Notes under the pieces: model-generated | Seen by the model: the letters and a program-made list of their open reading frames with translations, nothing else | Told to the model about the DNA's origin: nothing | The model's database searches: none | Assembly: GCA_021790195.1 (NCBI GenBank) | Contig: JAJYIF010000003.1 | Location: forward strand, 4,459-68,458 | Direction: 5' to 3' | Length of the DNA stretch: 64,000 nt | Source: Nitrospirota bacterium | GTDB lineage: Bacteria > Nitrospirota > Thermodesulfovibrionia > Thermodesulfovibrionales > UBA9159 | Shown here: one piece after another, positions 3,826 to 61,532 of the stretch | How positions within the stretch are numbered: position 1 is the stretch's first letter | Layout: each line of letters begins with the position of its first letter | Program-made: the position numbers and the translations under genes

Positions 3826-4857
3826 ATGAATCCGGATATTAAACGGTTCGTTCTGCCCGTTGTCGTAGCCTTGGTGTCTTCGTTTGTCCTCTTTGTCCTG
3901 AGAAGCTTCTCCTTCGGCTTGCTTCGAAGGTGGTCGGAGAAGAGCGAGGAAAAGATAGGGGCCATCGTAATAGATACTTTCAGGACGCCGTCTTTTTACT
4001 TATGTATTGCGATCGGCCTTCATAGCGGCCTTTCCACGTCTGAGCTGCCGGCAAGGTATGTCTTCTACCTGACGAAGGTCATTCATGTGGTAGTGATATT
4101 TTCGATCACTTATGCCTGCGCGAATCTGTCGGGCGATATCTTCAGGAATTACATACAGAAATCAAACCTGCCGATCCCCCCGACCGGCTTGGCCTACGGC
4201 ATAGTGAAAGGGGCCGTCTTCGCGGTAGGCTTCCTGATCATCCTTGGCGCGCTCGGCATTGCCATCGCCCCGCTTCTGACAGCACTCGGCGTCGGGGGAC
4301 TTGCCGTGGCCCTCGCCCTGAAGGATTCACTCGAGAATCTTTTTGCCGGAATTCATATATTGATGGAGAGGTCCGTGAGGATCGGTGATCTGATCAGGCT
4401 TGAGACGGGTCAGGAGGGCCGCGTCGAGGACATTACCTGGAGGACTACAAGGATAAGGGTGCTTTCGAACAACATGGTGATCATTCCGAACAGCAAACTT
4501 GCCCAGAGCATTGTCACAAACTACTATCTTCCCGACAAGACGATCTTCATCGGCATTGCCGTTGCGGTCGGTTACGAGTCCGACGTAGAGAAGGCGGAAA
4601 AGGCGATTGCCGAGGAGGCGCGGAAGGCGGTGGGAGAGGTCGCCGGGCTTTTGGGCGAGCCGGAGCCGTCCGTAACGATGACTTCGGGTTACAAAGAGGG
4701 CGCCATTGAGTTCACGGTAGGTTGCAATGTGAGCGAATATACCGAGCAATACTCCGTACAGGATGAACTCAGGAGAAGGATATTGAAGAGGCTCAGGGAC
4801 GAGGGGATAGCGGTCCCCCTGCCGGCGAGAGCGGTTTATATAAAGAAAGATATATAG
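3826..4857 (+). CDS. Small-conductance mechanosensitive channel (MscS family)
   Basis: TM helices; LGVGGLAVALALKDSLENLFAG and G.VEDITWRTTRIR..N..VIIPNS motifs. Confidence 0.9.
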   Translation: MNPDIKRFVLPVVVALVSSFVLFVLRSFSFGLLRRWSEKSEEKIGAIVIDTFRTPSFYLCIAIGLHSGLSTSELPARYVFYLTKVIHVVVIFSITYACANLSGDIFRNYIQKSNLPIPPTGLAYGIVKGAVFAVGFLIILGALGIAIAPLLTALGVGGLAVALALKDSLENLFAGIHILMERSVRIGDLIRLETGQEGRVEDITWRTTRIRVLSNNMVIIPNSKLAQSIVTNYYLPDKTIFIGIAVAVGYESDVEKAEKAIAEEARKAVGEVAGLLGEPEPSVTMTSGYKEGAIEFTVGCNVSEYTEQYSVQDELRRRILKRLRDEGIAVPLPARAVYIKKDI

Positions 4858-4873: not shown

Positions 4874-6094
4874 ATGCAGCCAAAGATTCTTGCCTTTGTC
4901 TTAGCGGGAGGGAAGGGTGAACGGCTTTTTCCGCTCACGGCTTTCCGTTCCAAACCCTCTGTCCCTTTCGGAGGCAGATACAGGATAGCAGATTTCGTTC
5001 TGAGCAATCTCATCAATTCGCAGATCTACTCGATCTATCTGCTGGTACAGTATAAGTCGCAATCCCTAATCGAGCATGTCAGGCGTAACTGGGTGCTCTC
5101 GCCGGTCATAAAGGACCATTTTGTGGCGGTAGTGCCGCCCCAGATGCGCATGGGACCCGAATGGTTCCAGGGTACTGCGGATGCGGTTTTCCAGAATATG
5201 ACTATTATTAAGGAGCATAACCCCGGATTGGTGGCCGTCTTCGGCGCCGACCACATCTACAGAATGGATATCCGCCAGATGGTCAACTTTCACTTGGAGA
5301 AAGACGCCCTTGTCACAGTGGCTGCGCGGCCTGTACCGATAGAACAGGCATCCGCTTTCGGAGTCATCATGAGCGACAGCGAAAACAGGATCGTCGGTTT
5401 TCAGGAAAAGCCCAGGAAACCCTTGCCGATGCCGAACGATCCCGGGCGCGCCTACGTCTCTATGGGGAATTACATCTTCAACCGGGATGTGCTGCTGGAC
5501 GCCCTTGCGAGGGCGCAGAGGAAGAAGCAGCACGATTTCGGGGCACATGTCATACCGGACCTTGTAGCGAGCGAGCGCGTCTTCGCATATGATTTCGGGA
5601 CGAACGTCATCCCCGGGATCAAGTCGTACGAAGAAAAAGGGTACTGGAGGGACGTGGGTACCATCTCTGCATTTTTTGAGGCTCAAATGAATATGCTCGG
5701 CGATTCGCCCCTCTTCGAACTGGACAACTCCGAATGGCCCATACACCCATCGAATTATGAGGGGCCCTCATCGAAGATCCTGAGGGGCACTATACGAAAC
5801 TCCATCATTGCCGAGGGCACGGTCATTCACAAGGCAAGGATCAGCAACTCCGTGATCCGGAGCGGTGTGGTGATCGAGAACGACGTGAGCGTGGAGGATT
5901 GCATCATCATGGACCAATCCGTGCTGAAGAAAGGCTGCCGCCTGCGCAAGGTCATAGTGGACAAGTATAACGTGATAAAGGAGGGCGAGAGCCTCGGCTT
6001 CGATCCCGACAAGGACCATTTGTCCTGTCATATTGATCCGTCGGGGATCGCCATCCTTCCAAGGGGCGGGCGTCCGCAGAAAGGCGCGAGATGA
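4874..6094 (+). CDS. glgC: Glucose-1-phosphate adenylyltransferase
   Basis: Motifs LAGGKGERLFPLT..RSKPSVPFGGRYR, GTADAV, FQEKP, SMGNYIF, YWRDVGT. Confidence 0.95.
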   Translation: MQPKILAFVLAGGKGERLFPLTAFRSKPSVPFGGRYRIADFVLSNLINSQIYSIYLLVQYKSQSLIEHVRRNWVLSPVIKDHFVAVVPPQMRMGPEWFQGTADAVFQNMTIIKEHNPGLVAVFGADHIYRMDIRQMVNFHLEKDALVTVAARPVPIEQASAFGVIMSDSENRIVGFQEKPRKPLPMPNDPGRAYVSMGNYIFNRDVLLDALARAQRKKQHDFGAHVIPDLVASERVFAYDFGTNVIPGIKSYEEKGYWRDVGTISAFFEAQMNMLGDSPLFELDNSEWPIHPSNYEGPSSKILRGTIRNSIIAEGTVIHKARISNSVIRSGVVIENDVSVEDCIIMDQSVLKKGCRLRKVIVDKYNVIKEGESLGFDPDKDHLSCHIDPSGIAILPRGGRPQKGAR

Positions 6095-59634: not shown

Positions 59635-59970
59635 CTAATGTCCGCCGGATGAAACGACGCGATTGCGACCAGCTGACTTTGCCGCGTAGAGGGCATCATC
59701 CGCCCCCTTAAGGACAGTTCCCCACTTGCTGTCAATGCAGTCCTTATCGAAGGCCGAAACGCCGCAGCTGACGGTAATGATCCCCCTGTCGGAACCTGCG
59801 TTTTCGATAGACATGGTCTCGATGTCTTTTCTTAACCTCTCGGCGACAACAGCGGTAGTCCTGGTGTTCTGTTCGGGAAGAACTATCACATTTCTTCGGC
59901 TAAGAATGTCCTTGAGCAGCTCCCGGGTTACAGGATCGTCCTCTACTACCAATATCAGTCCCTTGGTCAC
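59635..59970 (-). pseudogene. Internally deleted response-regulator diguanylate cyclase
   Basis: Receiver start ILVVEDD..TRELL is fused to the post-GGDEF half (VLPE..AERLR..ITVSCGVS..ADDALYAAKSAGRNRV); the GG(D/E)EF motif is absent. Confidence 0.75.
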
Positions 59971-60012: not shown

Positions 60013-61065
60013 CTACTTGCAATCGCCGGAGAGAAAACACTGCGGATCGTCCCCGAGAAAGTCGCTGCCCCCTTTTGACTGGGAATATGCGTATGCGATG
60101 GCGCGGCATCCCCTGCAACCGGACCATCTCCCGCAATCTCCGCACCTGCCCCTGTAGCCGCTCTTGTCCCTCAGCGAGAGCAGCACGGGCGACGAGGCCC
60201 ACAGCTCCCTAAGGTCGTCCTTCTTCACATTCCCGAGCCGCACAGGCAGCCTCCTGCAAGGAGTGACCGTGCCGTCCGGGAGGATAGTAAAGCCTGAAAC
60301 GCCTGCGGCACATCCTCCGGTGGCTACCGATCCTCCGGCGGATCTTCCATTTACAGACATCTGGGAAGCGACAGGATCTCCGGTGACGAGATCGAGTCCC
60401 TCTATCTTCAGGGAGACTATATTCTTATAGAGCGATTCCACCCTCTCCCGGCTAAGCATCTTCCTGAGAAGACCCGCCCCCCTGCCTGAAGGCACAAGCC
60501 TCGAAAAACCAAGTCTCTGGACGCCGGCCGAGGCTGCAAGCTCGACGATGTCCATGAAATAGTCAGCATTCACCTCAGAAAGAGTGGCATTAAGTGTCAC
60601 TTTTATCCCTTCCTCCAGAAGACAGCCGACACCTTTAAGCGAGGCCTGGAAACTGCCCTTGCCCCTGATCATCTCATGGATCTTTTCCGGCCCTTCGATG
60701 CTTACCTGCACGCCCCTCACGCCGAGCCAGGAAAGCAGTCTCGCCTTTGCCCTGTTGATGAGAATGCCGTTGGAAAGCAGATAAACGTCAAAACCCCTTC
60801 TCCTGACGTCCTCTAGGATCTCGAAGATGTCTTCATGCAGGAAAGGCTCGCCTCCGGTGATATTGAAGCTGCGGGAAAAACCGATCTCGTAGCTTTCAGA
60901 CCAGGCATTCAGCATGTCCTGGATCTCGCCGATCGTCTCCCTTATCTCCTGAAGCGACATCTCGTCGGTCTTCCCGTTATTCTGGTAGCAGTGCCTGCAC
61001 CTCAGATTGCACCTTTCGGTGAGATGCCACTGTATAAAAAAGTCTGTGTTGTCGCTTATGGACAT
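60013..61065 (-). CDS. Radical SAM/SPASM domain protein, putative peptide maturase
   Basis: CNLRCRHC and TGGEP; SPASM cysteines CAAG...DG.VTPC...CGDC....CRGCRA...DPQC; RBS GAGGTG. Confidence 0.92.
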   Translation of the reverse strand: MSISDNTDFFIQWHLTERCNLRCRHCYQNNGKTDEMSLQEIRETIGEIQDMLNAWSESYEIGFSRSFNITGGEPFLHEDIFEILEDVRRRGFDVYLLSNGILINRAKARLLSWLGVRGVQVSIEGPEKIHEMIRGKGSFQASLKGVGCLLEEGIKVTLNATLSEVNADYFMDIVELAASAGVQRLGFSRLVPSGRGAGLLRKMLSRERVESLYKNIVSLKIEGLDLVTGDPVASQMSVNGRSAGGSVATGGCAAGVSGFTILPDGTVTPCRRLPVRLGNVKKDDLRELWASSPVLLSLRDKSGYRGRCGDCGRWSGCRGCRAIAYAYSQSKGGSDFLGDDPQCFLSGDCK

Positions 61066-61168
61066 GAATGCACCTCTCGGATTTGGCGGCAGCAGAAGGA
61101 AGACATAAATAGGCGGACAGTCAATATGTCTTTCATATGTCTCTTACACACTGCCTGTCCGCCTTCCT

Positions 61169-61185
61169 GTTGCCAGACCGGCAAC
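61169..61185 (-). promoter_or_regulatory. Bacterial SECIS element (fdhF-like)
   Basis: GTTGCC-GGTCT-GGCAAC perfect hairpin. The loop resembles the E. coli fdhF SECIS (GGUUGC-AGGUCU-GCACC). The stem starts 10 nt after the second UGA. Confidence 0.8.
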
Positions 61186-61186
61186 T

Positions 61187-61309
61187 TCAGCTCTTTCAGC
61201 TCTTTCACTTGTGGCATACCTTGCCAGGATTTTCCTTCACCGCCTTCCTGAAATCGCTCCAGAAAGCTGCCTCCTTGACAAGAGCCTCTTTGCTCAATGC
61301 CTTCTTCAT
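61187..61309 (-). CDS. Putative selenocysteine-containing RiPP precursor peptide, MKKALSKEALVKEAAFWSDFRKAVKENPGKVCHK-U-KS-U-KS*
   Basis: RBS AAGGAGGT; in-frame TGA at 61207, 61198 and 61189 in register with Cys32 (C-x-x-U-x-x-U); SECIS immediately downstream; rSAM/SPASM gene follows. Confidence 0.75.
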
Positions 61310-61394
61310 CCTGCTCCACCTCCTTTCTTCCCTGCTGATGAGGGATTCATGGAATAAAGCGATGCCGTATGGGAAAGGCATTGCTTCTTCCTAT

Positions 61395-61422
61395 ATGCTA
61401 GCATGCGTCCTATACCTGTCAA
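61395..61422 (-). promoter_or_regulatory. sigma70-type promoter for the peptide-rSAM operon
   Basis: TTGACA-16 nt-TAGCAT with an extended -10 TG. Confidence 0.55.
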
Positions 61423-61532
61423 CTTTCCTAACCTCCCGCATGGATCGGCCCCGATGGCGCACGGCTCCGGCCCGGCGCAGCCATGGGTACACCTGCAGAC
61501 AAAGGTGTCATATGCATTCCGGCAATCAGGTC

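Follow-up and report, generated by a model that had tools for sequence, protein, structure and literature searches.

Only one natural family of selenocysteine (Sec)-containing peptides matured by a radical S-adenosylmethionine (rSAM) enzyme is described in the parts of the literature accessible to us, SbtA/SbtM (TIGR04081/TIGR04082). This thio(seleno)oxazole system of RiPPs (peptides made by the ribosome and modified after translation) has a narrow range (Geobacter and Desulfobacteria) and combines a short peptide with about two Sec, a selenocysteine insertion sequence (SECIS) and an rSAM/SPASM partner (PMC9204691 and PMC13188914, available sections). The same combination is found at the locus described here, in a 64,000-nucleotide stretch of a Nitrospirota genome (GenBank assembly GCA_021790195.1, contig JAJYIF010000003.1, positions 4,459 to 68,458; hereafter the window), where a small gene with in-frame UGA codons and a SECIS-like hairpin is followed by a gene for an rSAM/SPASM enzyme. 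We consider it probable that the two genes form a cassette, one encoding a selenopeptide made on the ribosome and the other its rSAM maturase. Judged from sequence, this peptide apparently represents a second family of the Sec-containing, rSAM-associated kind, unrelated to SbtA/SbtM and with a far wider distribution.

Other described systems share part of this layout. The ranthipeptide/SCIFF enzymes PapB, CteB and Tte1186 likewise pair a small Cys peptide with a single rSAM/SPASM enzyme, often in a bare two-gene cassette. Sec can replace Cys in the substrates of PapB and Tte1186, which bind it at an auxiliary cluster and make selenoethers (PMC10177961, available sections); unlike in those substitution experiments, Sec is natural and essentially invariant here. 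The UXX-star/UxxU selenoproteins (NF041114, NF041211, NF041115) also carry Sec two or three residues from the C-terminus, some with two Sec three positions apart (PMC13188914, Table 1), but they are domain proteins (glutaredoxin-like or metal-binding) without an rSAM partner. In the available sections of a 2026 inventory of 119 prokaryotic selenoprotein families, the only comparable peptide is "Selenobacteriocin, TIGR04081, SGUG" (PMC13188914). A search of the full-text articles accessible to us found no description of the peptide family, and no curated model matched it, in agreement with the suggestion of an undescribed family in an earlier note on this DNA.

The peptide gene and its relatives

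All features of the cassette lie on the minus strand, and coordinates are those of the window. The peptide gene (61190..61309, 40 codons) starts with an ATG at 61309..61307, 7 nt downstream of the Shine-Dalgarno sequence AAGGAGGTG (61317..61325); both this strong ribosome-binding site and the ATG at 61309 had been pointed out in the earlier note, as had a 9-nt tandem repeat. The frame opens with MKKALSKEALVKEAAFWSDFRKAVKENPGKVCHK and continues with TGA, K, S, TGA, K, S, TGA, the repeat being present in it as tandem TGAAAGAGC x2. The product divides into a leader (residues 1–31) with a conserved KEAAFW helix and a core, C32-H-K-U35-K-S-U38-K-S, in which U35 and U38 correspond to the UGA codons at 61205..61207 and 61196..61198, respectively.

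When the DNA upstream of related rSAM genes was translated with TGA read as U, the small gene was found in 19 loci, the window's included. These 19 intact peptides have 37–41 residues, and all have GGAGGTG 5′ of the start codon. In an alignment of 64 sequences, E13, C32, U35 and U38 were invariant and A14, K36 and K39 were conserved at 90% or more. A pattern search of the whole source genome returned exactly one copy, and a reversed control pattern returned none.

A total of 103 loci were examined; after removal of 3 duplicates and 15 loci without an adjacent peptide, the same peptide arrangement recurred in 85 distinct loci, which is far beyond chance. The 15 comprised four at contig edges (L024, L051, L060 and L107), one degenerate locus (L034), one with a YceI gene at the contig edge (L097) and nine whose genomes were searched for the peptide element (see below). 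An rSAM-alignment scan of species-representative genomes gave 80 loci, all in metagenome-assembled genomes (MAGs). The taxa recorded were Nitrospirota/Thermodesulfovibrionales, Dissulfurispiraceae, Syntrophales, Syntrophobacterales, Desulfobulbaceae and Desulfobaccales, together with Geobacter sp., Syntrophorhabdus, Deferribacteres and Dehalococcoidia/Chloroflexi. The range thus differs from that of SbtA/SbtM, extending over Nitrospirota, Syntrophales and other Thermodesulfobacteriota, Dehalococcoidia and a Deferribacteres MAG.

The peptides have no detectable sequence kinship with SbtA: none of the 64 matched TIGR04081 at E ≤ 0.1, in line with the earlier impression that the sequence does not resemble the Geobacter-type precursors. 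The UXX-star models NF041114 and NF041211 also matched 0 of 64, with only a U-x-x-stop shape in common, NF041115 gave no match either, and NCBIfam and Pfam scans of the same 64 peptides gave chance-level matches only (best SkfF, 0.0033, in 5 of 64).

Some loci depart from the usual arrangement. One (L084) holds two copies of the peptide element, at 3932-3993 and 5736-5797. In genome G002, the copy adjacent to the rSAM gene (the degenerate L034) lacks the leader, and the neighbouring rSAM gene contains a TAA in frame; another contig of that genome (C2:9400-9461) holds the element intact.

Probable UGA decoding and the SECIS-like hairpin

In public databases the peptide, when annotated at all, is a 34-aa hypothetical protein ending at the first TGA, and no source annotation covering the full peptide was found. 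With annotation ending the gene at the first UGA, surveys of RiPPs and selenoproteomes cannot see the family. Taken at face value, the gene callers would make the UGAs plain stops, the product a 34-residue Cys-only peptide and the hairpin a regulatory element or terminator. We regard this explanation, along with its variant in which the rSAM enzyme is an AhbD/NirJ-type cofactor enzyme and the peptide gene an incidental neighbour, as very improbable. Against plain stops stands the codon usage of the 85 distinct loci: the first position was TGA in 84 and TGC, for Cys, in one (L104), and the second was TGA in all 85, so that neither was ever TAA or TAG, whereas the terminal stop varied freely (TAA 38, TGA 32, TAG 15). 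In addition, past the UGAs the reading frame, the codons for Lys and Ser and a fixed stop were all retained, with synonymous codon changes such as AGC, AGT or TCC for Ser.

By these patterns the first two TGAs behave as sense codons. Since homologues carry TAA, TGA or TAG at the third position, the third TGA of the window (61187..61189) is a true stop, and there are two Sec per peptide rather than three. The earlier note had listed three TGAs in register with Cys32; a reading as Sec stands for the two conserved ones and fails for the third, and the Cys/UGA interchange it had envisaged among orthologues is found at the first Sec position of L104.

Metagenome contigs gave a similar picture. The TGA/TGA version of the core pattern of the Dehalococcoidia type was found in at least 100 stretches, from this sub-type alone, and the all-Cys version in none. 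Eighty loci from the TGA/TGA scan yielded 65 distinct peptides (stops TAG 38, TAA 29, TGA 13), and in a crude check CxxxCxxC was present within 400 nt downstream in 60 of the 76 loci with enough sequence. Sec being near-obligatory, selenium itself can be argued to be necessary for the function of the product. A database protein of 39 aa (P0146) has Cys in place of either Sec, in the sequence ...CLACKSCKGK; this could be a genuine all-Cys variant, or else a read-through record with U printed as C, and its leader was not found among the 80 TGA-type metagenome loci.

The base following both UGAs was A throughout the 85 loci, even where the next residue is Ser or Asn (codon after Sec1: AAG 69, AAA 8, AGC 7, AAC 1; after Sec2: AAG 69, AAA 15, AGA 1). 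This invariant A may reflect a decoding-context constraint.

The source genome encodes selA, selB, selD and tRNA-Sec (selC), all above curated cut-offs, which are the four genes that the earlier note had named. It is selenoprotein-rich, given that at least four formate-dehydrogenase (fdh)-like genes (L237, L238, L239 and L241) have one in-frame TGA each and that selD itself carries one. Further afield, selB was present in all five distant cassette genomes searched (Dehalococcoidia/Chloroflexi and Syntrophales). Among the related genomes, co-occurrence with selB is uninformative, as 59 of 61 have the gene. From the conserved codons we infer that Sec is inserted at both UGAs of the peptide.

With Sec two or three residues from the C-terminus, the SECIS must sit past the stop codon. 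A hairpin, GUUGCC-GGUCU-GGCAAC, indeed lies in the 3′ untranslated region one base past the stop (61169..61185), exactly as reported before, and its stem starts 10 nt past the second UGA and 19 nt past the first. Manual reading found a GC-rich hairpin 3′ of the core in 83 of the 85 loci; in 75, a hairpin of 6–7 bp with a GGUC-type loop started 9–13 nt after the second UGA, and the loop had a G-U step in 82 (GGUC, GUC, GUU, CGUG or AGUU). In an unfitted alignment of 17 sequences, 95.1% of cells were paired and two pairs showed compensatory changes. A covariance model built from this alignment matched 93 places in 100 loci, and in the model-fitted alignment 97.9% of cells were paired, four of the six pairs showed compensatory changes and double-change cells numbered 66 versus 16.2 ± 3.2 in shuffles; pairing in slid controls on this alignment was 12–58%. 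The hairpin is thus conserved with covariation, a point that the earlier note had left to comparison with homologues. Its support is comparative, since a single-sequence fold of 61150..61216 did not single it out (z −1.53), and an Rfam scan of 61000..61450 returned only sub-threshold chance matches.

The strongest argument for a SECIS role is, on its sequence, the likeness of this hairpin to those of the genome's own fdh-like selenoprotein genes. In two of these (L239 and L241), GGUGGCC-GGUCU-GGCCAC starts 11 nt after the UGA; the loop of a third is AGUCU. The peptide hairpin shares the GGUCU loop, with near-equal spacing and a similar size. The SECIS of Escherichia coli fdhF likewise has a short GC-rich stem with a GGUCU loop and lies 11 nt from its UGA, and bacterial SECIS elements in general have a UGA-to-loop distance of 16–37 nt. 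Unlike the fdh-gene elements, the peptide's element is outside the reading frame, just past the stop, and would apparently serve two UGAs, the first (at 19 nt) as well as the second.

Between the peptide and rSAM genes (61111..61164) lies another hairpin, larger than the first, with a U-rich tract behind it. It has a folding energy of −27.6 kcal/mol (z −5.1), and none of 200 shuffles folded as well. Relatives conserve its longer stem, GGCAGAUAUGGC...GCCAUAUCUGCC, with compensatory changes, also after peptide genes that are not linked to the rSAM gene. The structure resembles a terminator or attenuator placed between the two genes of the cassette. As the better terminator candidate, it removes the main alternative role of the first hairpin and so adds, together with the match of that hairpin to the genome's own SECIS elements, to the case against plain stops.

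The rSAM/SPASM enzyme and its pairing with the peptide

The proposed maturase (60013..61065, 350 aa) matched PF04055 (5.9e-23; 82.3 bits, cut-off 29.5) and the SPASM domain PF13186 (4.8e-10; 40 bits, cut-off 21.5), and the domain assignment given in the earlier note was thereby confirmed. In 19 orthologues, C19-x3-C23-x2-C26 and seven SPASM cysteines (C252, C270, C308, C311, C317, C320 and C343) were invariant. Seven SPASM cysteines are also found in PapB, CteB and Tte1186 and agree with a three-Cys, chalcogen-binding auxiliary cluster 1; in the CteB scheme the seven are divided between this cluster and a four-Cys cluster 2 (PMC10177961, available sections). By analogy, the seven cysteines of the enzyme studied here fit the same division, with C252, C270 and C320 as the putative ligands of auxiliary cluster 1, based on motif order and on contacts in the structural model described below.

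The enzyme reached no curated NCBIfam cut-off. The scores were 166.1 bits for NirJ2 and 164.1 for AhbD (cut-off 500 each), 163 for ACGX (400), 150.3 for GeoRSP (TIGR04303; 400), 146.6 for SbtM (TIGR04082, 1e-42, profile positions 199–503 of 516; 350), 138.3 for NirJ (equivalog cut-off at least 500), 92.1 for StsB (625), 78.4 for the SkfB model (300) and 71.8 for PapB (340). The nearest solved relatives by sequence are peptide or protein modifiers, namely SkfB (2.1e-25), PqqE, anSME and CteB. The variant mentioned above, that of a cofactor enzyme with an incidental neighbour, finds some encouragement here in that NirJ2 and AhbD are the best NCBIfam matches and that some sources name homologues "AdoMet-dependent heme synthase", the public names being otherwise "radical SAM protein" or similar. 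Both scores fall far under their cut-offs, however, and the enzyme does not reach that of NirJ, PqqE or any other curated family, the cofactor families named in the earlier note among them.

The genomic distribution also bears on this variant. An rSAM orthologue (56–68% identity) was found in 22 of 60 related genomes and, in the count over 61 relatives, in 23. The peptide RNA/core element (E ≤ 1e-6) was detected in 22 of the 61, all of them among the 23 with an orthologue; in the remaining one (G022) the peptide was found by translation (L041), with an element match of 2.8e-6. None of the 38 relatives without an orthologue had the element, which argues against an incidental neighbour. Orthologues are distributed patchily over eight coded families and related genomes are not independent, hence no P value is given.

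The peptide gene was directly 5′ of the rSAM gene in most of the 103 loci. Where it was not adjacent, the element with its hairpin was found elsewhere in eight of the nine genomes searched, the search in the ninth (G071) being negative. Clustering of open reading frames (ORFs) within 5 kb of the 80 loci from the species-representative scan revealed no conserved third gene, and the only recurrent neighbour was a YceI-family gene (13 of 80 loci). Examples of the latter are at 7057-7590 in L062, 1207-1761 in L088 and 5462-5995 in L099; in the last two of these loci it separates the peptide gene from the rSAM gene.

A model of the complex was computed from the rSAM enzyme (19-row alignment) with three 4Fe-4S clusters and SAM, and from the 34-residue leader (47-row alignment). 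The ipSAE was 0.90, against 0.00 for the best control; in a calibration made without custom alignments and ligands, 58 of 80 solved complexes attained the 0.90 mark, as did 2 of 110 mismatched pairs. The runs agreed in at least 91% of contacts, and the partner pLDDT was at least 83. In the model, leader residues 9–17 lie on W55, 58–59 and 284–291 (including the invariant R286 and W289), Cys32 touches 251 and 253, which flank C252, and the interface also takes in 270–272 and 320. The prediction supports binding of the leader to the rSAM/SPASM enzyme.

Other rSAM enzymes were noted along the way. A true GeoRSP rSAM/SPASM enzyme is encoded elsewhere in the source genome (L247, G000:C33:103200-104500, ORF 159-1172 on the minus strand; TIGR04303, 528.2 bits against a cut-off of 400) and represents another rSAM peptide system, one already known. 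In a paralogous rSAM clade (~40% identity), the rSAM gene comes directly after that of a TIGR04222-domain membrane protein (34-1464 and 1474-2487 in L044; also L045-L047), whose Gly/Ser/Cys-rich C-terminal tail is a possible protein-tail substrate.

Candidate chemistry, rival readings and neighbouring features

Our preferred reading, a selenopeptide precursor modified by the adjacent enzyme, draws on features established at the sequence level: the peptide, its conserved UGAs, the SECIS-like hairpin, the Sec machinery and the genome-wide co-occurrence with the enzyme. The leader and rSAM-modified Sec core proposed in the earlier note are supported by these features, with two Sec in the core. 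In the mechanism we propose, the small gene would be translated from its own strong ribosome-binding site, and the single SECIS past the stop would recruit SelB and Sec-tRNA at two UGAs nine bases apart, giving a 40-residue peptide that ends in C-x-x-U-K-x-U-K-x. The helical leader would dock on the enzyme through its KEAAFW motif, and the core would thread past auxiliary cluster 1, which apparently has three Cys ligands and an open iron site. A chalcogen of the core may then coordinate this iron while a 5′-deoxyadenosyl radical abstracts a hydrogen.

The most likely reaction would be the formation of Se–C (perhaps S–C) cross-links to neighbouring residues, a selenoether chemistry suggested by analogy with PapB and Tte1186. 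As a guess, the acceptors could be the near-invariant Lys four residues past C32 and U35 (K36 and K39), spacings that recall the Cys-X3-Asp/Glu motif of PapA. As no exporter or protease accompanies the cassette, the product probably acts inside the cell, where it could be, for example, a redox-active or metal-binding selenopeptide or a cofactor. We raise more tentatively, as a possibility that falls somewhat short of an even chance, the full proposal that this is the first natural peptide class with enzyme-installed selenoether bridges, made by leader-guided compact rSAM/SPASM enzymes, serving as an intracellular selenium redox or metal cofactor in anaerobes of at least three phyla and using one post-stop SECIS for both Sec.

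As the main alternative chemistry, the same pair of genes might perform another reaction, such as oxidation of Sec or Cys side chains to SbtM-like thio(seleno)oxazoles or in the manner of anSME, without C–Se cross-links; this seems to us unlikely. SbtM is the sole characterised rSAM enzyme acting on a natural Sec-containing peptide in the literature available to us, the enzyme matches its model at 1e-42 over positions 199–503, and anSME is among the nearest solved relatives. The 146.6 bits are nevertheless far below the SbtM cut-off of 350, and a part of about 190 residues, the N-terminal third of the profile, is missing from the 350-aa enzyme. Whereas Sec lies within GGUG/SGUG in SbtA, that motif is absent here and each Sec precedes Lys, at the extreme C-terminus in C-x-x-U-K-x-U-K-x; the seven-Cys SPASM pattern, moreover, resembles that of thioether formers.

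Less probable still, and in our view a rather poor fit, is a free-standing mini-selenoprotein, with C-x-x-U-x-x-U as a redox or metal site or a selenium carrier and the peptide as a partner of the rSAM enzyme or its selenium donor. UxxU and CxxU are motifs that redox and metal-binding selenoproteins typically carry (PMC13188914, Table 1), no conserved protease or exporter adjoins the cassette, and the peptide gene is often solitary, with the rSAM gene far away. Strict co-occurrence with the enzyme and a confident leader-docking model are, in contrast, the signature of a leader-guided substrate, and a conserved leader of 31 residues would be unnecessary for a simple metal site.

Several points weigh against a selenopeptide modified by its own maturase. 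No convincing hairpin is present in two of the 85 loci (L025 and L058). A single hairpin has to act on two UGAs that lie at unequal distances (10 and 19 nt), and E. coli tolerates little change in the spacing between UGA and SECIS. As A always follows the UGA, Lys conservation may partly reflect decoding and not chemistry. The best curated matches of the enzyme include the cofactor enzymes NirJ2 and AhbD, with scores equal to those of peptide maturases, so sequence alone does not place it among the maturases. Unlike PapB, CteB and Tte1186, for whose families it scores far below the cut-offs (PapB, 71.8 versus 340), it has no N-terminal domain of the RiPP recognition element (RRE) type; no recognisable RRE/PqqD-like leader-binding domain was found in it or provided by partner genes. 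Lastly, the modelled 34-residue leader lacks both Sec residues, and custom alignments were used.

The family is broad, with 85 distinct loci from species-representative genomes and the abundant metagenome sub-type, and it raises several questions: which chemistry an rSAM enzyme carries out on natural Sec, whether a SECIS lying beyond the reading frame is able to serve two close UGAs, and what use uncultured anaerobes (Nitrospirota, Syntrophales and Dehalococcoidia) make of such a peptide.

Upstream of the cassette, a sigma-70-like promoter match (TTGACA-16-TAGCAT with a TG extension, 10 of 12 positions) is present at 61395..61422, where the earlier note had placed a promoter; with one match in the region against a shuffle mean of 0.9, it is not significant alone. 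The same note had stated that the list of ORFs misses the peptide and shows an ORF in a different frame. The latter is listed (87 aa, 61056..61319), but the leader appears too, as a 58-aa ORF (61205..61381) that begins at an upstream ATG and ends at the first TGA. Just 3′ of the rSAM gene, a 111-aa ORF (59635-59970, minus strand) has a short N-terminus resembling a receiver domain, joined to just the C-terminal portion of a GGDEF domain, and looks like a truncated or fused remnant.

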